A stretch of DNA of 64,000 nt. Origin: Candidatus Latescibacterota bacterium (GTDB lineage: Bacteria > Latescibacterota > UBA2968 > UBA8231). The notes under the pieces were generated by a model that saw only the letters and a program-made list of their open reading frames with translations, was not told the DNA's origin and made no database searches. The stretch is from positions 2,089,175 to 2,153,174 of the forward strand of contig CBDAOB010000004.1 in the NCBI GenBank assembly GCA_965197905.1. Reading direction: 5' to 3'. This document shows, one piece after another, positions 43,548-62,988 of this stretch; position 1 is the stretch's first letter; each line of letters opens with the position of its first letter. The translations under genes and the position numbers were made by a program.

Positions 43548-45371
43548 ATGCCCACCTACATTCTCGGTCTTTCCGCCTTCTATCACGACAGCGCCGCCTG
43601 CCTTATTCGCGACGGCGAAATCATCGCCGCTGCTCAGGAAGAGCGTTTCACCCGCATCAAGCACGACCCCGGTTTTCCGCTCCACGCAGCACGCTACTGT
43701 CTTGCTGAAGCGGGCATCGCGGCCAAGGATTTGCGCTGCATCGGATTCTACGACAAACCGCTCCTGACTTTCGAGCGGCTGTTGGAGACGCATCTGGCGA
43801 CCGCCCCCAAAGGCATTCGGCTTTTCTGGAAGAGCATGGCTGTATGGCTGAAGAAGAAGCTATGGATTCCCCAACTGATCCAACGCGAGCTAGAATTCGA
43901 CGGCCCGGTCCTTTTCGGTGACCACCACGAGTCACACGCCGCGAGCGCATTCTACCCTTCGCCCTTTGCGGAGGCGGCGATCATCACCCTCGATGGGGTC
44001 GGCGAATGGACCACCACCAGCTACGGATACGGCAGAGGGGCGGATATCCACACCCTGGCCGATATCAAGTTTCCCCACTCTCTCGGTTTACTCTACACCG
44101 CCATCACCTACTTCACCGGTTTCAAACCCAATTCCGGGGAGTACAAGCTGATGGGGTTGGCGCCGTACGGCCAGCCCCGATACGTAGATCGCATTATGGA
44201 GAACGTGATCGATCTCAAGGAAGACGGATCGTTCAAGCTGGACATGCGCTATTTCAACTACCTCGCCGGCCTCACCATGACCAATCAGCGGATGGCGGAG
44301 CTGTTCGACGGTCCGCCACGAAAGCCCGAATCGCCTCTTACGCAGCGGGAAATGGATCTGGCGCGATCGTGCCAGCAGGTCACTGAAGAGGTGATGCTGC
44401 GCATCGCGAGAACTGTCCACCGCGAAACCGAGATGAAACATTTGTGCCTGGCCGGTGGGGTGGCGCTGAACTGTGTCGGCAATGGTCGCATTTTGCGGGA
44501 AGGGCCTTTCGAAAAGATCTGGATCCAACCGGCAGCAGGCGATGCAGGGGGGGCGTTGGGTGTGGCTCTCTCGCTGTGGTATCGATATTGCGAGAATGAC
44601 CGCAGAGTCCCTGGCGCCGGCGATGGCATGGGGGCGTCGTTATTGGGTCCTTCCTTCGATGACGAGCAGATCCGGGAGTTCCTCGAACTGAATGTGGCTC
44701 CCGGAGAATTCATGAGTCGGGAGCAGTTGCCGGTACGAGTCGCCGAGCTGCTCAACGATGAAAAGGTGGTCGGTTGGTTCAGCGGCCGCATGGAATTCGG
44801 TCCGCGGGCATTGGGCGCCCGCAGCATCATTGGTGATCCACGATCGCCCAAGATGCAATCGGTGATGAATCTTAAAATTAAGTTTCGCGAGAGCTTTCGT
44901 CCGTTCGCGCCGTCGGTATTGCGGGACCGGGTGCAAGATTTCTTCGAAATAGACGCCGACTCACCGTATATGCTTCTCGTCGCACCGGTAAAGGAAGATC
45001 GGCAGATACGGATGACCGCGGACGAGGAGAGCTTGTTCGGAATAGACAAGCTGAATATCCCACGTTCGGACGTTCCGGCGGTCACGCACGTCGACTATTC
45101 AGCGCGCATTCAGACGGTCCGGAGAGAAGAGAATCCACCGTATTACGACTTGATCCAGGCTTTCAACAGCATTTCCGGATGCCCGCTGATCGTCAATACG
45201 TCGTTTAACGTGCGCGGCGAGCCGATCGTCTGCACTCCGGAGGATGCGTACCGCTGTTTTATGCGTACGGAAATGGATTACCTGGTTTTGGGGAACTACC
45301 TGCTCGACAAGAGATCTCAGCCTAACTGGAGCGAGAAGGAAGACTGGCGTGAAGAGTTCGAATTGGACTGA
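43548..45371 (+). CDS. Carbamoyltransferase (NodU/CmcH/SxtI family)
   Basis: HDSAA, QEERF, HHESHAASA, GEYKLMGLAPYG, AGGVALNC, EFGPRALG, KFRESFRPFAP, NTSFN. Confidence 0.93.
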   Translation: MPTYILGLSAFYHDSAACLIRDGEIIAAAQEERFTRIKHDPGFPLHAARYCLAEAGIAAKDLRCIGFYDKPLLTFERLLETHLATAPKGIRLFWKSMAVWLKKKLWIPQLIQRELEFDGPVLFGDHHESHAASAFYPSPFAEAAIITLDGVGEWTTTSYGYGRGADIHTLADIKFPHSLGLLYTAITYFTGFKPNSGEYKLMGLAPYGQPRYVDRIMENVIDLKEDGSFKLDMRYFNYLAGLTMTNQRMAELFDGPPRKPESPLTQREMDLARSCQQVTEEVMLRIARTVHRETEMKHLCLAGGVALNCVGNGRILREGPFEKIWIQPAAGDAGGALGVALSLWYRYCENDRRVPGAGDGMGASLLGPSFDDEQIREFLELNVAPGEFMSREQLPVRVAELLNDEKVVGWFSGRMEFGPRALGARSIIGDPRSPKMQSVMNLKIKFRESFRPFAPSVLRDRVQDFFEIDADSPYMLLVAPVKEDRQIRMTADEESLFGIDKLNIPRSDVPAVTHVDYSARIQTVRREENPPYYDLIQAFNSISGCPLIVNTSFNVRGEPIVCTPEDAYRCFMRTEMDYLVLGNYLLDKRSQPNWSEKEDWREEFELD

Positions 45372-45406
45372 ACCTTGCGGGTTGAGGTGTTGATGGACTG
45401 GGGAGT

Positions 45407-45832
45407 ATGATCGACAAGAGCGGATTCTGGCGCATACCTTCGGCATCCAGGTCTGAGCTGCGCACATTCGGACTCGTCATGGCCCTCGCCGCCGCGGCGA
45501 TCGCACTGCTTCTGTGGTACCACGGGTCCGTCGACACCGCACAAGGCGTGGGTCTGGCGGCAGCGGCATTCATCGGACTCGCCCTCGGCATTCCGTCGAT
45601 TCTGCGACCGCTGTATACCGTCTGGATGTTGCTTGCCCGGGTACTAGGATTCATAAATACGCACATACTGTTGGGACTGGTTTTCTACACCATTTTCACC
45701 GCAATCGGGCTGGCCATGCGCTTGATCCGGCACGATCCGCTGGATCGCAAACTCGACGCGGATGAAAAGAGCTACTGGTCTCGGCGCGAGCCTTCTCAGT
45801 TGCCGCGAAAGCACTTCGAGCGGCAGTTCTGA
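45407..45832 (+). CDS. SxtJ-family membrane protein
   Basis: LRTFG, P..LRPLY..WM..A..LG.IN...L, DPL, SYW, ERQF C-terminus; follows the carbamoyltransferase. Confidence 0.8.
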   Translation: MIDKSGFWRIPSASRSELRTFGLVMALAAAAIALLLWYHGSVDTAQGVGLAAAAFIGLALGIPSILRPLYTVWMLLARVLGFINTHILLGLVFYTIFTAIGLAMRLIRHDPLDRKLDADEKSYWSRREPSQLPRKHFERQF

Positions 45833-45946
45833 CGGCTCATTGAGCCGGCTGGCCATCTTGATATTATCTATTGCCACAGCTATATTTACCCGCTTTGGGA
45901 GAAGGCTCTGAGGCACCCAGAAACAGCTTCCGCTCAGCGGTCTGAG

Positions 45947-46411
45947 GTGGCCGCCGCAGATCGCCGCTGGATCGAGTTGGCATTGGAGGAAGCACGCCTC
46001 GCCGCCACCAACGGTGAAGTTCCAGTTGGGGCTCTCGTCGTTCGAGAAAACAAGGTCGTCGGGCGCGGGGCCAATGCCACGGAACGTGAGCAAGACCCGA
46101 CTGCCCATGCCGAGATCCTGGCTATCAGGCAGGCCGCCGAATACCTTGGGACAAGGCGCCTGAACGACACGACCTTATACGTTTCTCTGGAACCCTGTTC
46201 CATGTGTGCAGGAGCTATCGTGCTCGCTCGTATCCCGTTACTCGTCTTCGGAGCCCACGATCCCAAGGCGGGCGCCTGCGGGTCGTTGCGGGACGTGGTC
46301 CGCGATACTCGTCTCAATCACCAATGCGAGGTACGAGGCGGAGTGATGGAACCCGAGTGCGGCGGTTTATTGAAGGAATTCTTTGCGGACATCAGGTCGT
46401 CGACAGCCTGA
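45947..46411 (+). CDS. tadA: tRNA adenosine(34) deaminase
   Basis: EVPVGA, DPTAHAE, LEPCSMCAGA, DPKAGACGS, LNH. Confidence 0.93.
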   Translation: MAAADRRWIELALEEARLAATNGEVPVGALVVRENKVVGRGANATEREQDPTAHAEILAIRQAAEYLGTRRLNDTTLYVSLEPCSMCAGAIVLARIPLLVFGAHDPKAGACGSLRDVVRDTRLNHQCEVRGGVMEPECGGLLKEFFADIRSSTA

Positions 46412-46422
46412 CAGCAGGTTTG

Positions 46423-46513
<91 letters not shown>

Positions 46514-46532
46514 TCACGAACGATGCAAATCG

Positions 46533-46623
46533 GGAGAGATGACCGAGTGGTCGAAGGTGCACGACTGGAAATCGTGTGTAGCGCGAACCGCTACCGTGGG
46601 TTCGAATCCCACTCTCTCCGCCA
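46533..46623 (+). tRNA. tRNA-Ser (GGA)
   Basis: GGAGAGA/TCTCTCC acceptor, anticodon loop CTGGAAA, long variable arm, GCCA. Confidence 0.96.
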
Positions 46624-46808
46624 TATATATTCTGTAACCCCTTTATAAACAAAATATTATGTAAGATAAGAAAACTCTATCCCCTCATTTTTACCTCCAT
46701 TCTTTAACGGAATGAACGGGACCATACTGGACTTTCCGCGGTTCCGGCTGCCACCTCGGAGGCCTGGTTCCCTTGAGAGCCGGTCGATGTTGTCCCGGAG
46801 AGCGTCGA

Positions 46809-47093
46809 TCAGACCGTGGAGACGCGGGGGGCGAAGAAGATGCCCGTGAAGTGGTCCCGGACGAAGGTGTCCGCCTGGGGGTTGTCGGCACGTAGCGCCT
46901 CCCGGTCTTCGTCACTGAGGCGGACGGTGCGGTTTTCGATGGTGGCCCGGACCGCGTGGTGGCAGTAACGCAGCCGGTCGTTGGCCACGACCGCGATCCC
47001 CTTGCTCTCGTACATGTAGGCCACGACCGCCGGAGAAAACGTATAGGCCGACGACACCCCACCCGGGGTGTGCTTCCAGATCCAGCGCGGCAT
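46809..47093 (-). CDS. Hypothetical 94-aa protein divergent from cas3 (MPRWIWKHTPGG...FFAPRVSTV)
   Basis: GGTGGAG SD 4 nt before the ATG; GC-rich third positions; TATAAT on the minus strand at 47187-47192. Confidence 0.5.
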   Translation of the reverse strand: MPRWIWKHTPGGVSSAYTFSPAVVAYMYESKGIAVVANDRLRYCHHAVRATIENRTVRLSDEDREALRADNPQADTFVRDHFTGIFFAPRVSTV

Positions 47094-47213
47094 CGGTCTC
47101 CACCAGGAGTGTTGCTGGAGTTTGAGACAACCCGGTTGTCCTTGGCAAGAAGCCGGAGGAACTGAATCCTCATGAGTTGGATTGCCATTATACACCAGGA
47201 ATGAGGACGCAGG

Positions 47214-49442
47214 ATGTACTATGCACATTCCCTCAAAGGTCAGTCGAGGGAATACTGGCAGCCGCTCCGGGAGCACCTGCTCAAGGTCAAAGACGAGGCA
47301 GCGGCGCGGGGGGCCAAGTTTGGAACCGACAAAGCTGCGGGATTGGCTGGGCTTTTGCATGATCTTGGCAAGTACACAGAAGCGTTCCAGAAGCATATAG
47401 ATGGCTCGTCGATCCAAGTTGATCACTCCACGGCCGGTGCCCAACAGGTTTGCGTTCTTGACACGGCAACGCCAAACGACCGGGGCATGGCGCAGCTTAT
47501 CGCTTATACCATCGCCGGGCACCACGCTGGCTTGCCGGATATGCAAAGCGGGACCGGCTCACTCAATTCGCTTGATGAGCGGCTAAAAAAGACACTCAAC
47601 CCGCTTGACTCGACTTGGGAGAAGGAAATTCGGCCAGTCGCTACTGGTCTTTGGCCCGAAGGGTTCACACTAGGGAAAGACCGTGAGACGACGGCGTTTC
47701 AGCTCTCCTTCCTGACGCGGATGATCTTCTCGTGCCTCGTTGACGCAGATTTCTGCGACACCGAGGGCTTTTACGCTGATGCAAAAGGCGAGACCGTTGA
47801 CCGCGACTGGCCGACGCTCCCAGAAATAGTTGATCCGCTACGCGATAGGCTCAACAACCACTTCGCCGGACTTGCCAGCGAGGGCAAGGTCAATCGTCTG
47901 CGCCGCGAGATTCTGGAGCATGTTCGCGCTCAAGCCGATTGCTCTCCGGGCCTGTTCTCGCTCAACGTACCGACCGGCGGCGGCAAGACGCTGACTTCCC
48001 TCGCCTTCGCCCTCGACCATGCCAAAGCACACGGGCTTGAGCGCATCGTCTATGCCATTCCCTTTACTTCAGTGATTGACCAGACCGCAGGGATTTTCCT
48101 CGATGTGCTGGGTGAGGGCGTCGTCCTTGAACACCATTCGGCGATTGACGAAACCAAGTTCACAAAGCGGGAGGGAGCCGATAAACTGCGGCTCGCCATG
48201 GAGGACTGGGCGGCCCCCATCGTCGCGACCACCAACGTCCAGCTCTTTGAAAGCCTGTTTTCCCATCGCCCGTCGCGGTGCCGCAAGTTGCACAATTTGG
48301 CTCGTGCGGTCATTGTCCTCGACGAAGCGCAGACCATTCCCCTACACGTGCTCCGACCGGCGGTCGCCGCCCTTGATGAACTGGCTCGCAACTATGGCTC
48401 TTCAATAGTACTATGCACCGCGACCCAACCGGCACTCAAGGCACCTGAATTAAAAGGGGGCTTTGTCCAAGTCCGCGAACTCGCGCCTGACCCGCCGCGC
48501 CTGCACCAGAAGCTCGTCCGTGTCAGAATCTCCAACGGGGGCGCACTCAGCGACGAGAGCCTATGCAATGCCCTCACACAAACAGCGCAAGGCATGGTCG
48601 TTGTCAACAGCCGGAGACACGCCTTAGACCTCTTCCGGCAAGCCTGTGAAGCTGACATCGACGGCGTCGTGCATCTGAGTACGCGACAATACGCAGCGCA
48701 TCGTCGCCGCATTCTTGCGGATGTTCACCAGCGGTTAAAGGAAGGCAGGCCGTGTCGATTGGTTGCGACTTCGTTGGTCGAGGCGGGCGTTGATTTGGAT
48801 TTTCCGAGGGTCTGGCGGGCCGAGGCGGGGCTTGATTCGATTGCCCAAGCTGCCGGGCGGTGCAATAGGGAGGGACGACACGATGTTGCAGACAGCATTG
48901 TCACCGTGTTCCAATCAGAGGAACATCCAAGTCCGCCTGAACTACGCCAGCTTGCCGGAGATATGCAGCGCATCATCAGTCGTCATGATGACTTGCTCTC
49001 GCCGGAGGCCATGGAGGATTATTTCCAAGAGGTGTATTGGCGCAAGGGGGAGGGGCTCGGTGATGATGTTCTGCAAAAATTCACGGCTGATAGGAACGGA
49101 ACATCGTTCTCCTTCCGCGAAGTTGGAGAGACGTTCCGCCTGATCCAGAGCGGACTTGAGCCAGTGATCGTCGCCCGAGAAGAGGAAGCGGGTAAGGCGG
49201 TGCACGATCTCGCTTATGCTGAACGGCTTGGCGGCGTGGCGCGGCGGCTCCAGCCTTATATTGTGCAAGTTCACCCTCGCTTCCGGGCGCAACTTGTCAC
49301 AAATAATCACGTATGTTTTGCGGCACAGGAACGCTTCGGCGACCAGTTCGCCGTTCTCTTCACTCAAAGCCTCTATCAAGAAGAGGTCGGCCTCCTTTGG
49401 GAGGACGCGGATGCGCTCGGCGATGAGGTGATGCTTATATAA
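47214..49442 (+). CDS. cas3: Type I-C Cas3 HD nuclease-helicase
   Basis: YAHS, LREHL, LLHDLGKY, HHAGL, LVDAD, VPTGGGKT, DEAQ, TATQP, EAGVDLDF, QAAGRCNREG. Confidence 0.96.
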   Translation: MYYAHSLKGQSREYWQPLREHLLKVKDEAAARGAKFGTDKAAGLAGLLHDLGKYTEAFQKHIDGSSIQVDHSTAGAQQVCVLDTATPNDRGMAQLIAYTIAGHHAGLPDMQSGTGSLNSLDERLKKTLNPLDSTWEKEIRPVATGLWPEGFTLGKDRETTAFQLSFLTRMIFSCLVDADFCDTEGFYADAKGETVDRDWPTLPEIVDPLRDRLNNHFAGLASEGKVNRLRREILEHVRAQADCSPGLFSLNVPTGGGKTLTSLAFALDHAKAHGLERIVYAIPFTSVIDQTAGIFLDVLGEGVVLEHHSAIDETKFTKREGADKLRLAMEDWAAPIVATTNVQLFESLFSHRPSRCRKLHNLARAVIVLDEAQTIPLHVLRPAVAALDELARNYGSSIVLCTATQPALKAPELKGGFVQVRELAPDPPRLHQKLVRVRISNGGALSDESLCNALTQTAQGMVVVNSRRHALDLFRQACEADIDGVVHLSTRQYAAHRRRILADVHQRLKEGRPCRLVATSLVEAGVDLDFPRVWRAEAGLDSIAQAAGRCNREGRHDVADSIVTVFQSEEHPSPPELRQLAGDMQRIISRHDDLLSPEAMEDYFQEVYWRKGEGLGDDVLQKFTADRNGTSFSFREVGETFRLIQSGLEPVIVAREEEAGKAVHDLAYAERLGGVARRLQPYIVQVHPRFRAQLVTNNHVCFAAQERFGDQFAVLFTQSLYQEEVGLLWEDADALGDEVMLI

Positions 49443-49449
49443 TGGTAGG

Positions 49450-49479
49450 GGTGTCCCTCGTGCGGAGGGTATTGAATAC
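49450..49479 (+). repeat. Solitary degenerate CRISPR repeat between cas3 and cas5
   Basis: GGTGTCCCTCGTGCGGAGGGTATTGAATAC resembles the array repeat: CGTGC core, CCCTC/GAGGG stem, ATTGAA 3' motif. Confidence 0.55.
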
Positions 49480-49507
49480 CACAATACCACAGAAAAGGAG
49501 TTCGTCC

Positions 49508-50167
49508 ATGTTCGGAATACGTCTGCTCGTGGGAGGCGAATACGCCTGTTTCACGCGACCGGAAATGAAGGTCGAGCGCGTGTCCTACGACGTGATGACG
49601 CCTTCGGCGGCACGCGGCATTTTGGAGGCCATTCACTGGAAGCCGGCCATCGTCTGGCGCATTGACCGCATTCACGTTCTCAAGCCGATTCGGTTCCAGT
49701 CGATCCGGCGCAACGAGGTCGGCAAGAAAATTCCCATGGGGTCTGTCCGCACGGCGAAAAACAGGGGATCCATTGAGACCCTCTACACCAAAGTTGAGGA
49801 TGATCGCCAGCAACGTGCCGCAACCGTCTTGGTCAACGTTGAGTACGCCATTGAAGCGCACTTTGACATGACGGACGAAGCGGGCGAAAGCGATAACGTG
49901 GGCAAACACCTCGACATCTTCAATCGCCGCGCTAGAGGCGGGCAGTGCTTTCACCATCCCTGTCTCGGAACGCGAGAATTTGCCGCAGACTACACACTCA
50001 TCGAGAACGACGACCTGCCGCCAGCGATTGACGAGAGCCGCGACTTAGGCTGGATGCTCTACGATATTGACCACGAAAACGAACGACAGCCGCTTTTGTT
50101 TCGCGCCGAAATGAAACAGGGGGTTGTCGAAATTCCCTCACCCAACTCGCCGGAGGTACTGAGATGA
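49508..50167 (+). CDS. cas5: Type I-C Cas5c (Cas5d; pre-crRNA endoribonuclease)
   Basis: ACFTRPEMKVERVSYDVMTPSAARGILEAIHWKP, IRRNEV, PCLGTREF, DLGWMLYDID; AAGGAG SD. Confidence 0.96.
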   Translation: MFGIRLLVGGEYACFTRPEMKVERVSYDVMTPSAARGILEAIHWKPAIVWRIDRIHVLKPIRFQSIRRNEVGKKIPMGSVRTAKNRGSIETLYTKVEDDRQQRAATVLVNVEYAIEAHFDMTDEAGESDNVGKHLDIFNRRARGGQCFHHPCLGTREFAADYTLIENDDLPPAIDESRDLGWMLYDIDHENERQPLLFRAEMKQGVVEIPSPNSPEVLR

Positions 50168-51984
50168 GCATTCTGGCTTCTCTTGAGCGTGCCTATCATC
50201 GGCTCGCAACAGAGAACAAAGTGCCGCCGATTGGCTACTCCAATGAGCGGATCGACTATTGCGTCGTCCTGAAGGCCGATGGCCAGCCCGATGGTCCGCC
50301 TGTGGACCTACGAGACCACTCAGGGAAGAAACCTGTAGCCCCGCGACACTCAGTTCCGCGACCAGAGAAGCGGGCGGGTAAAACGCTTTTGCCGAGCTTC
50401 CTCTGGGACAAGGTATCGTATTCGCTGGGTGCCATGGAAGACTTGGAAGGCGAGGACCCACACACCAGAGAGCGTCGTGCCGATCGGGTGGCGAAGCAGT
50501 ACGAGGCTTTTCAGGACCGGCACCTCGTTGTCCTGCAAAATGAAAGCGACGCAGGGCTTGTGGCCTGCCGTTGTTTCTTGAAATGGTGGAAGCCAGAGTA
50601 CTTCGACGCGCATGGCTGGCCAGACGAAATGAAGGGGGCCAATGTGGTGTTCCGGTTGGAGGGAGAGCAAAACTTCATACACGACCGCGAGGCCTCACGT
50701 CAACTATGGGCTTCGCAGATGAATCAGGATCACGAACCGGGCCAAGCCGTTTGCTTGGTGACCGGAGAGAGATCCCCTATCGCTCGATTGCATCCCTCGA
50801 TCAAGGGGGTGCGTGGCGCACAGTCTGCCGGCGCATCCATCGTCTCTTTCAATCTCGACGCCTTTGAGTCTTATGGGCACAAACAGGGCGATAATGCACC
50901 CGTAAGCGAGGACGCTGCCGCCGCCTATACGACTGTGCTCAACCACTTTCTCCGTACCAACGAAAACAAAGTCCAACTCGGCGACACCTCGACTGTATTT
51001 TGGGCCGATGGCTCGAATGCGGAAACAGTGGCGCAATGCGAGGCACTATTTTCCTTCTTGGCCAATGACACAGGCGACGCGATAAGCGAGCAGGCCATCA
51101 AGTCCATTCTCGAAAAAATGGCAAGGGGCCGTCCCATGGAGGAAATCCGCCCGGATTTGCCCCAAGGTGTGCGCTTCTACGTGCTGGGGTTGGCCCCCAA
51201 TGCAGCGCGTATTTCGATTCGCTTCTGGCTGGAGGACGACTTTGCGACGTTTGCAGAGCATATCCTCTGGCACTATCGGGATATGCGCCTCGACCCGCGG
51301 CCGCGGGTCGAGGCGCCAAGCGTTCGGCGCTGCCTACTTGAGACCGCCACGACGAAGGTAAAAAACCGATACGAACATATCCCTTCCCAACTCGCTGGGG
51401 ATATGCTACGCGCGATCCTGACAGGTCGCCGTTATCCGCAGACGTTGTTTTCCACGATTCTCATGCGACTGCGGTCGGATAAGGCCATAACGGCCCTTCG
51501 CGTAGCCTTACTCAAAGCCGTGATCTGCCGAAATAGGCGCAAGGATGACCATTTAACAAAGGAGAATTTTATCGTGTCCCTCAATCCCACAAACGCCGAC
51601 TCCGGCTATTTGCTAGGCCGGCTATTTGCCTGCTTTGAGTACGCGCAAACGCAAGCCCTCGGTGGCAAGGTCAACGCCACGATATGCGATAAGTACTATG
51701 GGGCGGCTTCGGCGACGCCGCGGTCTGTATTTCCCATCCTGCAACGCAACGCCATGAACCACCTGTCGCGTCTGCGGAAAGACCGGCCTGCAACGCATCG
51801 CTATATCGACAACACAATCGCCCAGATCTATGGGTGCGCCACGCCCGATGAGCTGTTCGTGGCGACGCTGACGATGGAACGTCAGGCCCTCTTCGCCATC
51901 GGCTACTACCACCAGAAAAACGATTTTTACACCAAGTCCGCCCCCCGTGAGGAGGGCAAAGAAGAAAAGGAGAACGAAGAATGA
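50164..51984 (+). CDS. cas8c: Type I-C Cas8c (Csd1)
   Basis: FLWDK..Y, CLVTG, ARLHPSIKGV, SIVSFN..AFESYG, VLGLAPNAARISIRFW, YLLGRLFA, FAIGYYHQ. Confidence 0.95.
   Translation: MSILASLERAYHRLATENKVPPIGYSNERIDYCVVLKADGQPDGPPVDLRDHSGKKPVAPRHSVPRPEKRAGKTLLPSFLWDKVSYSLGAMEDLEGEDPHTRERRADRVAKQYEAFQDRHLVVLQNESDAGLVACRCFLKWWKPEYFDAHGWPDEMKGANVVFRLEGEQNFIHDREASRQLWASQMNQDHEPGQAVCLVTGERSPIARLHPSIKGVRGAQSAGASIVSFNLDAFESYGHKQGDNAPVSEDAAAAYTTVLNHFLRTNENKVQLGDTSTVFWADGSNAETVAQCEALFSFLANDTGDAISEQAIKSILEKMARGRPMEEIRPDLPQGVRFYVLGLAPNAARISIRFWLEDDFATFAEHILWHYRDMRLDPRPRVEAPSVRRCLLETATTKVKNRYEHIPSQLAGDMLRAILTGRRYPQTLFSTILMRLRSDKAITALRVALLKAVICRNRRKDDHLTKENFIVSLNPTNADSGYLLGRLFACFEYAQTQALGGKVNATICDKYYGAASATPRSVFPILQRNAMNHLSRLRKDRPATHRYIDNTIAQIYGCATPDELFVATLTMERQALFAIGYYHQKNDFYTKSAPREEGKEEKENEE
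51574..51984 (+). CDS. cas11: Cas11c small subunit from an in-frame internal start in cas8c (136 aa, MSLNPTNADSGYLLGRLFA...)
   Basis: AAGGAG at 51559-51564, GTG at 51574 in the cas8c frame; matches the known I-C architecture. Confidence 0.75.
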   Translation: MSLNPTNADSGYLLGRLFACFEYAQTQALGGKVNATICDKYYGAASATPRSVFPILQRNAMNHLSRLRKDRPATHRYIDNTIAQIYGCATPDELFVATLTMERQALFAIGYYHQKNDFYTKSAPREEGKEEKENEE

Positions 51985-52925
51985 CCGCACTCAATCATCG
52001 CTACGACTTCGTCTATCTGTTCGACGTCAACAACGGCAACCCCAACGGCGATCCGGACGCAGGCAACCTCCCGCGCCTCGACCCGGAAACGAACCAAGGA
52101 TTGGTCACGGATGTCTGCCTCAAGCGCAAGGTGCGCAATTTCGTTGAACTGGCTAAGGGCGACGAGTCCGGCTACGCGATCTACGTCCAGGAAGGTGCTC
52201 TGCTCAACGAGCAACACCGGAAGGCGTATCGGGTTGTGCGCCCCAACGACAAGAAGGTCGAGAGCAGCAAGAAACTAAGCCCCCAAAGCGACGAGGAGAT
52301 GGATAAACTGCGCGGCTTCATGTGCGACAATTTCTTTGATGTACGCACCTTCGGTGCGGTAATGAGTACCGGCATCAACTGCGGCCAGGTCCGCGGGCCG
52401 GTACAGATGACCTTTGCGCGGTCCATTGATCAGATCGTGCCGCTCGAAGTGTCCATTACGCGCATGGCAGCGACCAACGAAAACGAAAAGAAGGAGCGCG
52501 AGGATGCCAGCGATGAAAACGCGGGCGACGAGCGGACCGAGCACCGCACCATGGGTCGCAAACATATTGTGCCCTACGGACTGTATCGGGCGCACGGCTT
52601 TGTCTCCGCCAAGCTCGCCGAACGCACGGGCTTTTCGCCGGACGATCTCGACGTCCTCTGGAATGCCTTGACGCAGATGTTCGAACATGACCACTCGGCC
52701 GCCCGCGGCGAAATGGTTGCCCGTCGGCTCATTGCCTTTAAGCACGCCAGTGCCTTGGGCAACGCGCCCGCGCATAGGCTCTTCGAGCGGGTGAGTGTGC
52801 AGCGTGCAGAAGCGGATGGTAGCGAAGGCATCCTGCCGCCTGCCCGCAGCTTTGCTGACTATCGTGTAGAGCTCGACTTGGACGATATGCCGGCAAATGT
52901 CGAGGTCGTCGAGCCGATCACATAG
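51981..52925 (+). CDS. cas7: Type I-C Cas7 (Csd2)
   Basis: RYDFVYLFDV.NGNPNGDPDAGNLPR, TDVCLKRKVRN, DVRTFGAVM, TMGRK, FEHDHSAARG. Confidence 0.96.
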   Translation: MTALNHRYDFVYLFDVNNGNPNGDPDAGNLPRLDPETNQGLVTDVCLKRKVRNFVELAKGDESGYAIYVQEGALLNEQHRKAYRVVRPNDKKVESSKKLSPQSDEEMDKLRGFMCDNFFDVRTFGAVMSTGINCGQVRGPVQMTFARSIDQIVPLEVSITRMAATNENEKKEREDASDENAGDERTEHRTMGRKHIVPYGLYRAHGFVSAKLAERTGFSPDDLDVLWNALTQMFEHDHSAARGEMVARRLIAFKHASALGNAPAHRLFERVSVQRAEADGSEGILPPARSFADYRVELDLDDMPANVEVVEPIT

Positions 52926-53028
52926 ACGCCTCCGTGCGGGGTACGGAATGAAACAAACGGAGCGGAGATGCCGATGCGTGAAGCGCAGTTCGGGCGGTCA
53001 CCCCCAGTGCAGGGGCATGGATCGGACC
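52925..53028 (+). CRISPR. Cryptic mini-array (degenerate repeat, 42-nt spacer, degenerate repeat) between cas7 and cas4
   Basis: GACGCCTCCGTGCGGGGTACGGAATGAAAC (52925-52954; 24/32 with 2 gaps) and GTCACCCCCAGTGCAGGGGCATGGATCGGACC (52997-53028; 25/32 ungapped) versus the array repeat. Confidence 0.7.
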
Positions 53029-53672
53029 ATGGAATGGAGCCGGTACCCGTGTCGGCACTGCAACATGCGGTGTACTGTATGAGGCAATGTGCTCTGATCC
53101 ACTTGGAACGGCTTTGGGAGGAAAATCGATTTACCGCTGAAGGTCGGGTACTGCATCAAGTCATTGACGAAGCCGGGCGTCGGCGCAAGGCAGGTGTACG
53201 CCAAGTAATGTCGCTCCCGATCTACAGCATCCGGCTCAATCTTACAGGCCTCGCCGATATGGTCGAGTTCCGCGAAAGCCGGACGGGTACGACCCCGTTC
53301 CCGGTCGAGTTCAAACGCGGCAAGGCCAAAGTACATCGCGCCGACGAGGTGCAACTCTGCGCCCAGGCACTGTGCCTTGAGGAAATGACCGGTACAGAAG
53401 TGCCAATGGGGGCCTTTTACTACGGCCAAACCAAACGGCGGAAGGAAGTGTCTTTTGACGCCGAACTCCGCACCCTGACCGAGACGACAGTTGTGCAGGT
53501 AGCCACGCTCTTTGCGGGAGGCCGCACACCGCCAGCCGAATACGAAGCGGCCAAATGCCGTGGCTGTTCGCTGCTCGACCAGTGTCGCCCGAAGGCGATG
53601 GAGCGTTCGGTTATAGCTTGGCGGACGCGTACCCTAGCATCGCACCTTGCCGAGCCTGGAGAATACCCATGA
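52968..53672 (+). CDS. cas4: Cas4 exonuclease
   Basis: VSALQHAVYC.RQCALIH, G.ADMVE, PVEFKRG, QLCAQALCLEEM, C..CSL...C; start 52968/52974 (good SD) or 53034 (weak SD). Confidence 0.93.
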   Translation: MPMREAQFGRSPPVQGHGSDHGMEPVPVSALQHAVYCMRQCALIHLERLWEENRFTAEGRVLHQVIDEAGRRRKAGVRQVMSLPIYSIRLNLTGLADMVEFRESRTGTTPFPVEFKRGKAKVHRADEVQLCAQALCLEEMTGTEVPMGAFYYGQTKRRKEVSFDAELRTLTETTVVQVATLFAGGRTPPAEYEAAKCRGCSLLDQCRPKAMERSVIAWRTRTLASHLAEPGEYP

Positions 53673-54703
53673 GGCGGTTGCTCAATACGCTCTATGTTAC
53701 TACGCCTGAAACACGTCTGACCAAAGACGGCGAGAATCTGGTCGCGGAAGTAGAGGACGAGGAACGTGCGCGGGTGCCGCTCCACATGCTGGGATCTGTG
53801 GTGGTGTTCGGCGGCATCTATATATCTCCACCCCTGATCCAGGCCTGTGCTGCCGGCGGCATCGTCTTAGTGCTCCTGAGTCGATTCGGCCGATTTCAAG
53901 CCCGAGTCGAGGGACCGGTCTCTGGCAACGTGCTGCTGCGTCGCGCACAATATAGGGCCAGCGACGACCCAGAAGAGATCGTCCGCAGCATTCTCGTCGG
54001 CAAGATCGCCAATCAGAGAAGCGTCCTGCAAAGAGCCCAGCGAGATTACGGTGGGGAGCTTGAGCCTTCTGGCCGCGAAGCCATGTCCGCCGCGACGAAT
54101 CGCCTTCGGCAGATTGTGCAACGTATCAGCGACGGCCACGACAGTATCGATAGGCTACGCGGTTTTGAAGGCGAGGCCGCACGGCTCTATTTCTCCATCT
54201 TTGGCCACCTGATCCGCGTACCCGACCCAGAGATGGCATTCGCCGTCCGCAGCCGCCGGCCGCCGCTGGACCCGATGAATGCCCTGCTCTCGTTTCTCTA
54301 TACCCTTCTCGTCCACGATTGCAGATCGGCCGCCGAAAGCGTGGGCTTGGATCCGGCTGTAGGCTTCTTTCATAGAGATCGGCCCGGCCGTCCGAGTCTC
54401 GCGCTAGATCTTATGGAAGAGCTGCGGCCAGTCTTGGCTGACCGGCTCGCGCTATCGCTAGTCAATCGTCGGCAAGTTCGCGCTAAAGACTTCCAAGTCC
54501 GAGAAGGCGGCAGCGTCTCAATGAGCGACGCCGCTCGCACGACGGTTCTCAGTGCTTGGCAGGAGCGAAAGCGCGTAGAGCGCCGTCACCCTTTTTTGGG
54601 GGAGCAGGCACCGCTCGGCTTGGTTCCATATCTCCAGGCGCAGTTGCTGGCTCGGCATCTTCGAGGCGACTTAGATGCCCACCCGCCGTGGTTATGGAAA
54701 TAA
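53669..54703 (+). CDS. cas1: Type I-C Cas1
   Basis: MRRLLNTLYVTT, SGNVLLRRAQY, LRGFEGEAA..YF, RRPPLD..NALLSFLY, H.DRPGRPSLALDLMEE. Confidence 0.96.
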   Translation: MRRLLNTLYVTTPETRLTKDGENLVAEVEDEERARVPLHMLGSVVVFGGIYISPPLIQACAAGGIVLVLLSRFGRFQARVEGPVSGNVLLRRAQYRASDDPEEIVRSILVGKIANQRSVLQRAQRDYGGELEPSGREAMSAATNRLRQIVQRISDGHDSIDRLRGFEGEAARLYFSIFGHLIRVPDPEMAFAVRSRRPPLDPMNALLSFLYTLLVHDCRSAAESVGLDPAVGFFHRDRPGRPSLALDLMEELRPVLADRLALSLVNRRQVRAKDFQVREGGSVSMSDAARTTVLSAWQERKRVERRHPFLGEQAPLGLVPYLQAQLLARHLRGDLDAHPPWLWK

Positions 54704-54761
54704 GGCTATTCAACATGCCCTTCTGAATGATAGTCGCTCTCTCACAAGGAAATAACCGACC

Positions 54762-55052
54762 ATGATGGTTCTCGTTACGTATGATGTCTCGACGACATCC
54801 GATGGCGGCGCACGTCGGTTACGACGTGTCGCTAAGCTGTGTCGCGATTTTGGACAAAGGGTACAATTCTCAGTGTTTGAGATCGAGGTGGAGCCGGCGC
54901 AATGGGCCGCCCTGAAGGCGCAGCTTGAGACGATCATCAATCCAGAAACCGACAGTCTCAGGTATTATTTTCTCGGTGCTAATTGGAAGCGGCGTGTAGA
55001 GCACGTCGGTGCCAAACCGACCGCCGACTTGAACGGAACATTGATCGTCTGA
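54762..55052 (+). CDS. cas2: Cas2
   Basis: VLVTYDV, RLRRVAK.C.DFGQRVQFSVFE, DSLRYY.LG. Confidence 0.96.
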   Translation: MMVLVTYDVSTTSDGGARRLRRVAKLCRDFGQRVQFSVFEIEVEPAQWAALKAQLETIINPETDSLRYYFLGANWKRRVEHVGAKPTADLNGTLIV

Positions 55053-55238
55053 AAAGGATGGTGCGAACCACAAGAGGTCAGGTAAACACGGGGAGATCCG
55101 CGCATCGTCTAACCCACTGAGATTTAAAGGGATTCGAGTCACGATGGTGCCGGTAGCTATTCTTAACTAAGGAAGCCGGATAGGGTTCGCGCCAGCCAGT
55201 CTCTCACGTATTGTTACATAATGTATTAGCTTGCCGCA
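55053..55238 (+). promoter_or_regulatory. CRISPR leader
   Basis: Between cas2 and the first repeat; inverted GCGAACC (55063-55069)/GGTTCGC (55184-55190) motifs typical of I-C leaders; AT-rich proximal end. Confidence 0.8.
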
Positions 55239-57117
<1,879 letters not shown>

Positions 57118-57230
57118 CCGGCTGGGGCACCGTTGGCAAGACGGCGGTCGCTGGCGCCAAGGACCGCGATACCGGCCAAATCGCCGCCGAAGTCGTTCCC
57201 GACACTAAGGCCGATACCTTGCAGGGATTC
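57118..57230 (+). pseudogene. IS1595-family transposase internal fragment
   Basis: Translates as (R)AGWGTVGKTAVAGAKDRDTGQIAAEVVPDTKADTLQGF, matching the IS1595 GRG..GK..V.G..DR segment. Confidence 0.75.
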
Positions 57231-60701: not shown

Positions 60702-60982
60702 TCCCAGATGGAAAATACGCAGGATCTGAGCGCGTGTGTGACGAAATTGCAGGAGAATGTCCTGCAGTGGGAAAACCGGCTGCAATCCGAACAAGGAGGA
60801 CCGGCAGCGTTTCGCCTGGCGATGAACGAGCATGCGAGCTGCTCCCAGATGGAAAATACGCAGGATCTGAGCGCGTGTGTGACGAAATTGCAGGAGAATG
60901 TCCTGCAGTGGGAAAACCGGCTGCAATCCGAACAAGGAGGACCGGCAGCGTTTCGCCTGGCGATGAACGAGCTGCGAGCTGC
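60702..60982 (+). repeat. Tandem duplication (141/140 bp) of the transposase 5' end
   Basis: MENTQDLSAC...RLAMNE encoded twice; copies differ by one inserted A. Confidence 0.9.
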
Positions 60983-62279
60983 TTTTGATGAGATCGGTCG
61001 GACCGGTTTCCTGCGATTGGCGCACGCCTGTGAGGTCGCCTCCGACACGTTGGGTAACGACGGTCGGCTGTACCGCTTCAAGCAAATGGTCGACAAGGAG
61101 TGGATGAGTCTGTGGGGCAAGGTCGTAGTGCCACGTCGGCTGTATCAGGAAGACCATGGCGGACCGAGCCGGGTGCCGCTGGATGAGCGTTGCGGCATGG
61201 TGAATCGATTCATGGTGCCGGAGTTGGAGCGTGTGACGGCGTTTTTGGGCGCCCGGTTGGTCCCGGCCGAAGTCGAGGACAGCTTGGGTGAAGTGCTGCC
61301 GGAGCCGCCATCGCGTACGGCTATCCAGCACGTATTGACCACCGTCGGACAGTGTGCCGAGGACGGGGCCGAACAGCTCGAGCTGGCCTTGCAAGGCGCG
61401 GCGCCGCTGGACGCCGAGGGCGACACGCTCGTTGTGAGCTGGGACGGCGTCACCGTCCCCCTGCGAGAGCCAGCGCCCAAGCGCGGACGTCCGGCCGAGC
61501 GACCGATGGCCACGGCCACCGACACCACGCCCACCGCCTGGAAGGAGGCGGGTGTGGGCATGGTCGCCACCTACCTGACGCCGCTGGATCCAGAGGTCGA
61601 AGAGCCGGAACGAGTCGATGTGCGCTATGCCGCGCGTATGCCGGAAGCGAAGATGACGACCCTGGTCAACGGCCTGGTGGAGCAGACGGCCCGGGCGTTG
61701 CAGCAGGGTGGCTACGACCATCGTGTCGTTTTGGCCGACGGCAAACGAGAGATCTGGCGCATCGTCGACGAGCATGGTGTGTTCGAGGGTTTCACCCGCA
61801 TTCTGGACTTCTATCACGCGGCGCAGCATCTGTCGATGGCGGCGGAGCACCTTTTCGGCAAAAAGTCGGCGAAGGCGGATCGCTGGTATCGATCCTGGCG
61901 GCACAAACTGCGCCATACACCCAACGCCGTGGCGGGCTTGATCCGCTCTTTTTCCTACCACCGTCGCAAACTCCGAAGACGATCGGACCGTTATCGCCAG
62001 GCGACCACCGAAATGGGCTACTTTCGCAACAACCGGGACAAAATGGAATACGCTGGCTATCACGCCTCGGGCTTGATCATCTCCAGTGGCCCTGTGGAGG
62101 CCGCCGCCAAGACCATCGTCGGCCACCGACTCAAACGCAGCGGCATGCGATGGACCCGCCACGGAGGTCAGCAGATCCTCAACCTACGAGTCCAGGTGCA
62201 ATCGAAACGATGGGATGCTTTCTGGAACTGGTATCTCCAGCAGACCACACCCATAACAACCCTGAAAAGGGCAGCGTAA
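60708..62279 (+). CDS. ISKra4/UPF0236-type DDE transposase with duplicated N-terminus
   Basis: SWDG, LADG...IW, LDFYHA..HL, SG.VEAA.K....RLKRSGMRW. Confidence 0.88.
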   Translation: MENTQDLSACVTKLQENVLQWENRLQSEQGGPAAFRLAMNEHASCSQMENTQDLSACVTKLQENVLQWENRLQSEQGGPAAFRLAMNELRAAFDEIGRTGFLRLAHACEVASDTLGNDGRLYRFKQMVDKEWMSLWGKVVVPRRLYQEDHGGPSRVPLDERCGMVNRFMVPELERVTAFLGARLVPAEVEDSLGEVLPEPPSRTAIQHVLTTVGQCAEDGAEQLELALQGAAPLDAEGDTLVVSWDGVTVPLREPAPKRGRPAERPMATATDTTPTAWKEAGVGMVATYLTPLDPEVEEPERVDVRYAARMPEAKMTTLVNGLVEQTARALQQGGYDHRVVLADGKREIWRIVDEHGVFEGFTRILDFYHAAQHLSMAAEHLFGKKSAKADRWYRSWRHKLRHTPNAVAGLIRSFSYHRRKLRRRSDRYRQATTEMGYFRNNRDKMEYAGYHASGLIISSGPVEAAAKTIVGHRLKRSGMRWTRHGGQQILNLRVQVQSKRWDAFWNWYLQQTTPITTLKRAA

Positions 62280-62666
62280 AAACGAGGCTACACCCATTGA
62301 TATTGTCGTCGCATCCATAGAGGCTGGATCTGAATCCCCACACCTGAGTCTGGAGGGGTTGCCGGTGCGGACATTGACGCGGTCGCTGTAGCTGCCGGCA
62401 TACGCCGCCGCCGTGGACACGCTCAAGGTGAACGGACGCCAGGGTATCTCCGTCGGCAATGAAGGTCGTTTGCGTGGGATCGGGACTCAGAAAGGCTTGC
62501 AACAGGGGCATCTGCGGCGGCCATGGGCTCGCCGATGTGGTAGGTATTCGCTGGTTTCGGGTTCGTGTAGATCCAAGCGCCCAAGAGCGCCAGGTCGGTC
62601 AGTCGATGATGCTGTCCGAGTTGATGTCCGCCAGCTCGAAATCGTATGAGCTGTCCAGGGCGGGCC

Positions 62667-62988
62667 AGCCGACGAGGTGGTAGAGCAGCATCAGGTCCCA
62701 ATGATTAACCTCGCCTGTGCCATTGATGTCGCCGCGCATGTCGCCGCCGACGGCTTTCTTTTCGCTCGGCCCGTCAATCGCCTCCATCCGGGAGGACTCC
62801 AAAGGGGGCGTCCTGGGCGCCGGCGAGCCGACGAGGTGGTAGAGCAGCAGCATCAGGTCCCAATGATTAACCTCGCCGGTGCCATTGATGTCGCCGCGCA
62901 GGTCGCCGCCGACGGCTTTCTTTTCGCTCGGCCCGTCAGGCGCCTCCATCCGGGAGGACTCCAAAGGGGGCGGCCTGGGCGCCGGCGA
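62667..62988 (-). repeat. Tandem duplication (about 160 bp) of a linker plus dockerin half
   Basis: APR.PPLESSRMEA.DGPSEKKAVGGD.RGDINGTGEVNHWDLMLL(L)YHLVG occurs twice with a few substitutions. Confidence 0.88.

Follow-up and report, generated by a model that had tools for sequence, protein, structure and literature searches.

The element between cas7 and cas4 in the type I-C system of a Candidatus Latescibacterota bacterium is probably a decayed repeat-spacer-repeat relic of the I-C array that has been reused as the translation start of cas4, and not a working regulatory RNA. Its two degenerate repeats, here called psiR1 and psiR2, descend from the array repeat and have decayed neutrally, and the region carries coding signals. 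Throughout, the window is the whole stretch of 64,000 nucleotides that was analysed.

On the forward strand, cas7 (Csd2; present in the open reading frame list, TIGR02589, E 3e-114) occupies 51981..52925 and ends in a TAG stop (52923-52925), whose final base doubles as the first base of psiR1 (52925..52954), a non-coding degenerate I-C repeat of 30 nt. It is followed by a 42-nt 'spacer' (52955..52996) that serves as the cas4 translation-initiation region, containing an A-rich leader, two GGAG motifs, ATG 52968 and ATG 52974, and cas4 codons 1 to 7-9. The degenerate repeat psiR2 (52997..53028, 32 nt) lies within the cas4 frame, where it is translated as SPPVQGHGSD. Downstream, also on the forward strand, are cas4 (52968..53672), cas1 (53669..54703; TIGR03640, E 4e-150), joined to it by an ATGA overlap (ATG 53669, TGA 53670-53672), and the CRISPR array (55239..57126), with 26 perfect repeats, one repeat with a single mismatch and a degenerate terminal copy (57095-57126, 23/32 identical to the repeat). 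These coordinates and letters, with two degenerate repeats around a 42-nt piece bearing two GGAG motifs and in-frame ATGs, agree with the original prediction. So does the size of the 'spacer', since regular array spacers measure 32-43 nt, though just one of them is at least 42 nt long.

Descent from the array repeat is clearest for psiR2, which matches the 32-nt repeat at 25 of 32 positions ungapped and is the top non-array match genome-wide (score 32, runners-up 28; Smith-Waterman, both strands of the 6.69-Mb genome). For psiR1 the match is 24-25 of 32 positions, at the cost of two or three gaps. Since about 207 of 334,480 80-nt windows reach its score of 23, that score alone says little, and psiR1 is judged by position: it lies on the same strand as psiR2 and one spacer length (42 nt) upstream, a placement with a chance of about 6e-4. 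Each pseudo-repeat shares 25 positions with the true repeat, while the two share 22 with each other. The 3′ end of psiR1, GAATGAAAC, resembles a crRNA 5′ handle and is kept in five loci. In psiR2, as in the degenerate terminal repeat of the array, the 5′ two thirds survive and the 3′ end is gone; unlike the array copy, psiR2 sits 2.2 kb upstream of the array, beyond cas4-cas1-cas2 and inside a reading frame.

Neither pseudo-repeat qualifies as a type I-C direct repeat, whether by profile or by invariant positions. Against a covariance model (R1) built from 47 distinct I-C array repeats, psiR2 gives no match at E<=10, and psiR1 matches as a fragment only (6.2 bits, E 5.5). Solitary repeats elsewhere in related loci score far better in the same model: 28.5 and 30.6 bits in locus L035, 24.3 in L191 and 53.3 in L049. 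Ten positions (C3, G19, G21, G23, G24, T26, G28, A30, A31 and C32) never vary among the 47 repeats; G21 is altered in both pseudo-repeats, G19 in psiR1 and A31 in psiR2, with A at 21 and C at 31 in psiR2, and T at 19 and C or A at 20-21 in psiR1. The one Rfam match is that of the array repeats to CRISPR-DR9, below the gathering score; the pseudo-repeats match nothing there. Another solitary pseudo-repeat stands directly before cas5c in the window (49450-49479), and a search for its target found none. The cas1-cas2 gap of the window, considered as a third pseudo-repeat, was rejected as not significant (score 10-13, no covariance-model match).

The repeat-spacer-repeat arrangement is confined to one narrow Latescibacterota clade, represented by seven distinct loci, a number that gives low power for weak selection. 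Within these loci the cas7-cas4 gap spans 79-108 nt, whereas it is 74 nt or shorter in 52 of 57 non-clade I-C loci with arrays. Set against a null whose 99th percentile is 20 (1591 windows), a repeat score of 22 is attained by one of those 57 loci, within a 707-nt gap, and 77 of 79 metagenome I-C loci score below 22. The original prediction had counted absence from related loci as evidence against a regulatory role, and the 57 and 77 other I-C loci outside the clade indeed lack the arrangement. A metagenome scan for further clade members found none, the best match having 66% Cas4 identity. Two metatranscriptome runs yielded contigs with parts of the cas genes of a 90-95% relative. One such contig ends at 52982, and DNA-run contigs break at 52930 and 53007; assembled contigs cannot show RNA ends.

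For regulatory mini-arrays, the Shmakov pipeline takes conservation among closely related loci as its criterion; inside this clade, the arrangement is present in four of the seven distinct loci and degraded in three (n=7 only). Between the window and L005, differences amount to 8/30 in psiR1, 8/42 in the spacer and 9/32 in psiR2, and third-codon-position divergence in cas7 and cas4 is 0.22-0.27. The pseudo-repeats thus diverge at about the synonymous rate of the flanking genes, which points to neutral decay. Relatives carry deletions of 11 and 5 nt in psiR1, and in-frame deletions of 18 and 12 nt in psiR2 (L035 and L006). L006 retains TCGCCCCCCGT and L033 retains CGTGAACTGAAAC at the psiR1 site, which suggests that the unit is older than the clade.

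Alongside this decay, comparison across the clade shows ATG 52968 or ATG 52974 to be the probable start of Cas4, with psiR2 translated, as the original prediction held. GGAG motifs lie at 52959-62 and 52964-67, and ATG 52968, 52974 and 53034 all share the cas4 frame. Downstream (3′) of the upstream ATG, both indels are multiples of three (18 and 12), while none of the four on its 5′ side is (11, 5, 5 and 1). Between the window and L006, all six differing letters over the FGRSPPVQ codons are synonymous. The best-kept columns of the gap are AACAAAC..AG and ATG. The claim of a cas4 ribosome site and start codon within the 'spacer', made from the two GGAG motifs and the two ATGs, is borne out. The most likely translated form has 234 residues (from ATG 52968) or 232 (from ATG 52974); the 232-residue form occurs in public collections in an 18-protein cluster, and the 15 members listed have 231-234 residues except one of 154. 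The in-frame ATG at 53034..53036 (forward strand), earlier put forward as the possible true start, is better read as an internal methionine and at most a minor alternative start: only GGA stands directly upstream, and the codon is ATG in five of the seven distinct clade loci and ACG or ACA in L006 and L033.

The protein segment gained in this way is loosely constrained. The Cas4 profile TIGR00372 (E 1.3e-36) aligns its positions 2-179 to residues 27-207 of the 234-residue reading frame, leaving the N-terminal 24 residues outside. Protein-level constraint on this tail is weak, the ratio of divergence at codon positions 1+2 to that at position 3 being about 0.55-1.0, and a five-residue patch over the loop and 3′ stem of psiR2 varies widely inside a 90% cluster. 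Alignments of the N-termini of distant Cas4 proteins (L112, L150 and others) to the tail were discarded, these being short, unrelated acidic N-termini.

The most probable history is that one repeat-spacer-repeat unit of the I-C array was placed between cas7 and cas4, probably by a single insertion, in the common ancestor of this small clade, parting cas4 from cas7. Initiation of cas4 translation now probably takes place within what was the spacer, at ATG 52968 or 52974, with a GGAG serving each, and the ribosome reads on through the former second repeat. Because that repeat is open in the cas4 frame, it encodes part of a Cas4 N-terminal tail of 22-24 residues. The repeat-like letters themselves are probably neither under selection nor needed as an RNA guide, and processing by Cas5c probably does not occur; the parts that appear to be kept are the leader, the start codon with its Shine-Dalgarno site, and the brief FGRSPP motif. 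Some observations count against a relic, namely the short stems in the four closest lineages, pairing-neutral changes in L031, the hairpin of L032 and the kept GAATGAAAC end, to which can be added the weak protein-level constraint on the tail and the low power of seven distinct sequences.

The original prediction proposed that Cas5c excises the cas4 start, and a version restricted to the window's sub-clade would have Cas5c bind and cut the two residual hairpins and remove the ribosome site and start codon, leaving Cas4 and the ATGA-coupled Cas1 inverse to free Cas5c. We regard this as unlikely. In the available portions of 10.1101/2024.12.27.630466, I-C solitary repeat units directly before cas5c give rise to 49-50-nt crlRNAs, and Cas5c, cutting both in vivo and in vitro, cleaves them 3′ of the hairpin to give an 11-nt 5′ handle. 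The element belongs to the same subtype and would have the same processing enzyme, a pseudo-repeat precedes cas5c in the window as well, and the psiR1 3′ end remains handle-like. Promoter and terminator scans of 52600-53200 and 46400-47300, with a consensus that may not fit this phylum, found no sites, so cas4 is probably co-transcribed with cas7, and the ATGA overlap would extend any effect to cas1. Unlike the solitary units, however, the element lies at the cas7-cas4 junction, scores 6 bits or nothing against their 24-53 bits, and has no target.

Folding weighs further against excision. The claim that hairpin potential is retained stands in so far as short stems exist, with 4 bp in psiR2, at canonical places in the four closest lineages (the window, L031/L191, L032 and weakly L005; 5 bp for psiR1 in L191 and L032). 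It is weakened in that these folds are no better than those of shuffled sequences. The true array repeat folds at -15.1 kcal/mol with a 7-bp stem; psiR1 alone reaches -8.9 kcal/mol in a non-canonical register (33/200 shuffles equally good), psiR2 reaches -12.6 kcal/mol with a 4-bp inner stem (58/200 shuffles equally good), and the minimum-free-energy fold of the 161-nt context is devoid of canonical hairpins. Across the clade alignment, the share of paired cells is 61%, which 207 of 500 shuffles also attain. Two cases look more favourable. The window and L031 differ at two stem pairs (14-28 and 17-25), each time by a C/U change that leaves a G-C or G-U pair intact, and in psiR2 of L032 an A.C mismatch has become C-G, giving a hairpin of -19.8 kcal/mol (z -2.86); this clustered L032 change could stem from quasi-palindrome-templated mutation instead of selection. 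Against them stand the altered invariant positions beside the cut site in both copies, their rejection by the covariance model, divergence at the neutral rate, and the loss of both hairpins in three of the seven loci (L035, L006 and L033), where cas4 and its upstream start nevertheless persist. That the worn repeats in the window's sub-clade still recruit Cas5c, with the cas4 ribosome site and start codon cut from the operon mRNA as a crRNA-like piece, is unlikely. Were it true, free Cas5c would hold down the adaptation genes cas4 and cas1 until pre-crRNA or an anti-CRISPR titrates the enzyme. Cas5c sites would then recur along the I-C operon, the others being the pseudo-repeat in front of cas5c and, in a relative, one at the cas1-cas2 junction.

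The other role first proposed, that of a regulatory guide, is very improbable. Here a 74-nt crRNA-like RNA of the CreR/crlRNA type would sit in Cascade and repress a TTC-flanked promoter of partial complementarity outside the cas locus. There are precedents: according to the sections consulted of 10.1101/2023.03.10.532045, CreA and CreR are degenerate mini-CRISPRs that direct Cascade to promoters and so repress them, with creA-like elements reported for I-C, and Table 1 of PMC10120712 lists repeat-like sequences in 34% and mini-arrays in 7% of 1206 I-C loci. Within the clade itself, L035 has a convincing element of this kind, a solitary repeat before cas5c (at the cas3-cas5c junction) whose TTC-flanked target lies in the neighbouring promoter-like region. 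In the window, however, no TTC-flanked target with more than 7/10 seed matches exists in 45000-55300 in registers -3 to +3. A genome scan for TTC plus seed, proposed with the original prediction, returned seven sites with at most one seed mismatch, at chance level (mean 10.7 for 300 control 42-mers), and none in the window. The best genome-wide match, C4:393548(-), agrees at 18/24 positions, in the 3-5% tail of controls, and was rejected as a target for its seed mismatch at position 5 and its location within an open frame that runs for 1000 codons or more. A quasi-palindrome in the spacer (minus strand, 52979) gives a self-complementary match of 7/10 seed positions, judged to be chance. Further, the conserved spacer letters are the Shine-Dalgarno site and ATG and not the seed, and the pseudo-repeats fail the repeat model.

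In common with CreA/CreR (10.1101/2023.03.10.532045, as far as its consulted sections go), the element has a spacer enclosed by two repeat-like sequences in an intergenic part of a cas locus, psiR2 being the more degenerate; their defining trait, a spacer partly matching, through its seed, a PAM-flanked promoter site, was not found for it, and whereas CreR genes adjoin the promoter of an effector gene, it occupies the cas7-cas4 junction, where no promoter-like site was found. Likewise, it resembles the mini-arrays in the consulted sections of PMC10120712 in its two repeat-like sequences around one spacer, its position between genes of the cas operon and a distal repeat more degenerate at its 3′ end. 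It differs from them in having no cas-promoter target, in being limited to a narrow clade, and in that its spacer and distal repeat are the start and coding sequence of cas4. Reuse as a cas4 start or coding sequence is not mentioned in those sections, which name I-C once, in Table 1, and which regard many such mini-arrays and repeat-like sequences as spurious duplications without function. A cas4-overlapping palindromic candidate belongs to PMC9067536.

Chance resemblance, in which a Cas4 N-terminus rich in proline and glycine, and in G+C, happens to yield repeat-like letters, is scarcely credible: the region is translated and FGRSPP is conserved, yet psiR2 leads all 334,480 genome windows outside the array, the non-coding DNA exactly one spacer length upstream holds a second repeat-like piece, other portions of the true repeat survive in L006 and L033, and the N-termini of other I-C Cas4 proteins are short and unrelated.

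Read as a relic, the element offers a worked example of the fate of most stray CRISPR repeats in cas operons, which decay while useful parts are kept for another job: what was once a spacer would now provide the ribosome site and start codon, and what was once a repeat would code for protein. For this clade, the start of cas4 would be set at the upstream ATG. The same clade holds both a real candidate and a relic, told apart by covariance-model score, a PAM-flanked target, and divergence relative to the synonymous rate of neighbouring genes, and caution is due wherever a scan takes any repeat-spacer-repeat of a cas locus for a regulatory guide.

Between cas7 and cas4 of the window lie two degenerate copies of the type I-C array repeat, psiR1 (52925-52954) and psiR2 (52997-53028), enclosing a 42-nt 'spacer'. 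We regard this unit as probably a repeat-spacer-repeat relic that was reused as the translation start and coding sequence of cas4. The window, at the end of contig C4 in a genome of 6.69 Mb and 58% G+C whose close relatives are Candidatus Latescibacterota MAGs, holds one complete type I-C locus. It comprises cas3 (47214-49442), cas5c (true start ATG 49508, not the first ATG of the open reading frame, 49442), cas8c (50164-51984), cas7 (51981-52925), cas4, cas1 (53669-54703, overlapping the cas4 stop as ATGA), cas2 (54762-55052) and an array of 27 repeats from 55239. One array unit is irregular (56083-56137), consisting of a 15-nt spacer, a repeat copy (56098-56129; 28/32, degenerate at its 3′ end) and 8 nt before the next repeat. 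Tandem duplications occupy 60702-60983 and 62663-62988 (periods 141 and 162 nt, two copies each, 99% and 94% matches). A second Cas4-like domain (L024, G000:C4:15322-15891; 38% identity) lies elsewhere in this genome, within a 586-aa open frame whose counterparts in relatives span 578-599 aa.

Ungapped, psiR2 matches the 32-nt array repeat at 25/32 positions, and in a Smith-Waterman search of both strands of the whole genome it is the top match outside the array (score 32 vs 28 for the next best). psiR1 matches at 24-25/32 with gaps. Its score of 23 is equalled or exceeded in about 207 of 334,480 genome windows, so it counts by position alone, on the same strand and one spacer length 5′ of psiR2, where the chance of such a match is about 6e-4. 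The spacer lies at the upper edge of the array's range (32-43 nt). Each pseudo-repeat shares 25 identities with the true repeat and 22 with the other, consistent with both deriving from a real repeat rather than from duplication of a non-repeat site. Two degenerate repeats around a spacer of array size, as described in the original prediction, are borne out here, and the two GGAG motifs and three in-frame ATGs that it described are present.

Cas4 has candidate in-frame starts at 52968, 52974 and 53034, and five lines of evidence point to initiation upstream, at 52968 or 52974. ATG 53034 is replaced by ACG or ACA in the related loci L006 and L033, both of which have an in-frame upstream ATG with GGAG. 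Indels 3′ of the upstream ATG (18 and 12 nt) are both multiples of three, whereas none of the four on its 5′ side is (11, 5, 5 and 1 nt). The window and L006 differ by six letters in the FGRSPPVQ codons, and every one of these differences is synonymous. The 232-aa product of ATG 52974 has an exact match in public collections, where neither the 212-aa nor the 234-aa form was found. The cluster of the 232-aa form has 18 proteins, and the 15 listed measure 231-234 aa except for one of 154 aa. Directly 5′ of ATG 53034 there is GGA only, where the original prediction had noted a weak Shine-Dalgarno site. The tail is only weakly constrained, with a first-plus-second to third position ratio of about 0.55-1.0 in the tail and about 0.2-0.3 in the Cas4 core. 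Within the 90% cluster, five residues spanning the psiR2 loop are variable (VQGHG, VQGRR, REGDG, VLERD, VQEHR). In other I-C Cas4 proteins the N-termini are short and unrelated, with 4-16 residues before PIPLSALQH.

On the relic reading, one repeat-spacer-repeat unit would have been left behind at, or inserted into, the cas7-cas4 junction in the ancestor of the clade. Because the true repeat has no stop in the frame of cas4, initiation could move into the former spacer, where a Shine-Dalgarno site serves an ATG. The former repeat would then have become part of a floppy Cas4 N-terminal tail while the rest of the unit drifts. The unit's origin can only be inferred; candidates are a second-array remnant, integration of a spacer at a lone repeat, or, following the Discussion of Shmakov et al. 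(PMC10120712), duplication of a terminal unit.

The alternative that Cas5c excises the cas4 ribosome binding site and start codon, silencing the gene, is unlikely. In its favour, the four closest lineages retain short stems, pairing is kept across two C/U changes, and L032 has gained a C-G pair. Hairpins are gone in three of the seven loci, however, and the unit decays neutrally. Between the window and L005, psiR1 (8/30), spacer (8/42) and psiR2 (9/32) differ at the same rate as third codon positions of cas7 and cas4 (divergence 0.22-0.27). The hairpin potential noted previously survives as stems of 4-5 bp vs 7 bp in the true repeat; it is unexceptional in energy, equalled by 33/200 (psiR1) and 58/200 (psiR2) shuffles, and the canonical hairpins do not form when the 161-nt context is folded. 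Paired cells in the two canonical stems of the alignment reach 61%, equalled by 207/500 shuffles, and the most conserved gap columns are AACAAAC, the Shine-Dalgarno site, ATG and TTCGGG, not the stems. A covariance model of 47 distinct I-C array repeats with a 7-bp hairpin, searched with filters off, rejects both pseudo-repeats: psiR2 has no match at E<=10 and psiR1 only a fragment (6.2 bits, E 5.5). Solitary repeats in L035 (28.5 and 30.6 bits), L191 (24.3) and L049 (53.3) score higher under the same model. Positions adjoining the cut site that are invariant in 47/47 repeats are altered in both psiR1 and psiR2, which, with the model, argues against efficient Cas5c processing.

Less probable still is a CreR-type guide acting on a remote site; it lacks its defining target. 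Allowing no more than one mismatch across 10 seed positions, the genome holds 7 TTC-flanked sites, vs a mean of 10.7 for 300 control 42-mers, and none is inside the window. The best (18/24, in the 3-5% tail of controls) was rejected as a target, lying within an open frame of at least 1000 codons and mismatched at seed position 5. Shifted spacer registers gave no target in 45000-55300. The proposal of a target beyond the window thus finds only chance-level matches. Chance resemblance to the repeat is excluded for practical purposes by where psiR2 ranks in the genome and by the presence of its partner psiR1.

Searching 61 related genomes for Cas4, which matched in 20, and scanning GTDB genomes recovered the arrangement in seven distinct loci: the window (L002; Cas4 identity 100%), L031/L191 (96%), L032 (93%), L005/L192 (92%), L035 (89%), L006/L193 (80%) and L033 (about 80%). 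Both pseudo-repeats can still be made out in the window, L031, L032 and L005. Deletions in L035 remove 11 nt from psiR1 and 18 nt from psiR2; L006 has no recognisable psiR1 and a psiR2 shortened by 12 nt; in L033 both have decayed. Part of the true repeat, TCGCCCCCCGT, survives in L006, and CGTGAACTGAAAC survives where psiR1 would lie in L033, so the unit is older than the clade. Outside the clade, 57 I-C loci that carry cas7, cas4 and an array were scored, using the repeat of each locus. In 52 of them the cas7-cas4 gap does not exceed 74 nt, and only one reached a score of 22, inside a 707-nt gap (null from 1591 coding windows: 99th percentile 20, maximum 27). Among 79 metagenome I-C loci (Cas4 identity 50-66%), 77 fell below 22; the exceptions were a contig-edge artefact and a score of 23 with a generic repeat. 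The arrangement is thus restricted to one narrow clade, outside which absence from related loci, named beforehand as counting against the prediction, holds. Within the clade, L192 (G004) has an internal TAA in cas4 and only two repeats seen 3′ of cas2, and may be degenerating. L191 is 96% (Cas4) and 98% (Cas7) identical to the window and only 75-77% in Cas3 and Cas8c; its cas8c match (L191:1277-4282) extends over 3 kb vs 1.8 kb, which suggests module exchange or insertion within the operon.

Table 1 of PMC10120712 records repeat-like sequences in 34% of 1206 I-C loci, with mini-arrays in 7%, and the same paper calls many of them spurious. creA-like elements are recorded for I-C (10.1101/2023.03.10.532045). 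Solitary I-C repeats directly 5′ of cas5c are reported to yield crlRNAs with an 11-nt 5′ handle, Cas5c cleaving 3′ of the hairpin and targets carrying TTC or TTA (10.1101/2024.12.27.630466). One palindromic candidate RNA over the 5′ end of a cas4 is listed, with no function given in that source (PMC9067536). In our literature search, neither a Cas4 N-terminus derived from a repeat nor a mini-array at cas7-cas4 was found described; supplements of bioRxiv preprints, outside that search, may list such loci.

The window's own solitary degenerate repeat (49450-49479, gap 49443-49507), directly 3′ of the cas3 stop and 28 nt 5′ of the cas5c start, fits the published I-C crlRNA genes in position; no target was found for it within the window. 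A hairpin occurs at this site in 6/7 clade loci with differing stem letters (CCCTC/GAGGG, CCTCCC/GGGAGG, TTCCC/GGGAA, CGCTCC/GGGGCG, then TATTGAAA), and repeat-derived sequence 5′ of cas5c scores at least 22 in 12/58 I-C loci. L035 carries a full crlRNA-like gene here (L035:891-1052), with the 28.5-bit repeat, a spacer of about 30 nt, a terminator-like hairpin with a T run, and TTGACA. Its spacer has a TTC-flanked match at L035:1014, in an AT-rich stretch 5′ of cas5c (9/10 seed, mismatches at 6 and 12); only 5/1000 shuffled spacers find any such site, and the element probably mediates CreR-like autorepression. L191 has a crlRNA-like RNA gene (L191:493-620) without the target stretch. Well-kept solitary repeats also lie between cas1 and cas2, directly 3′ of the cas1 stop, in L035 (6171-6201; 30.6 bits) and L082 (6203-6231; scored by Smith-Waterman only, 43); the window's cas1-cas2 gap has no significant repeat likeness. 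The cas7-cas4 unit, for its part, is a real but ordinary relic, and its small twist is its reuse as a translation start and coding sequence.
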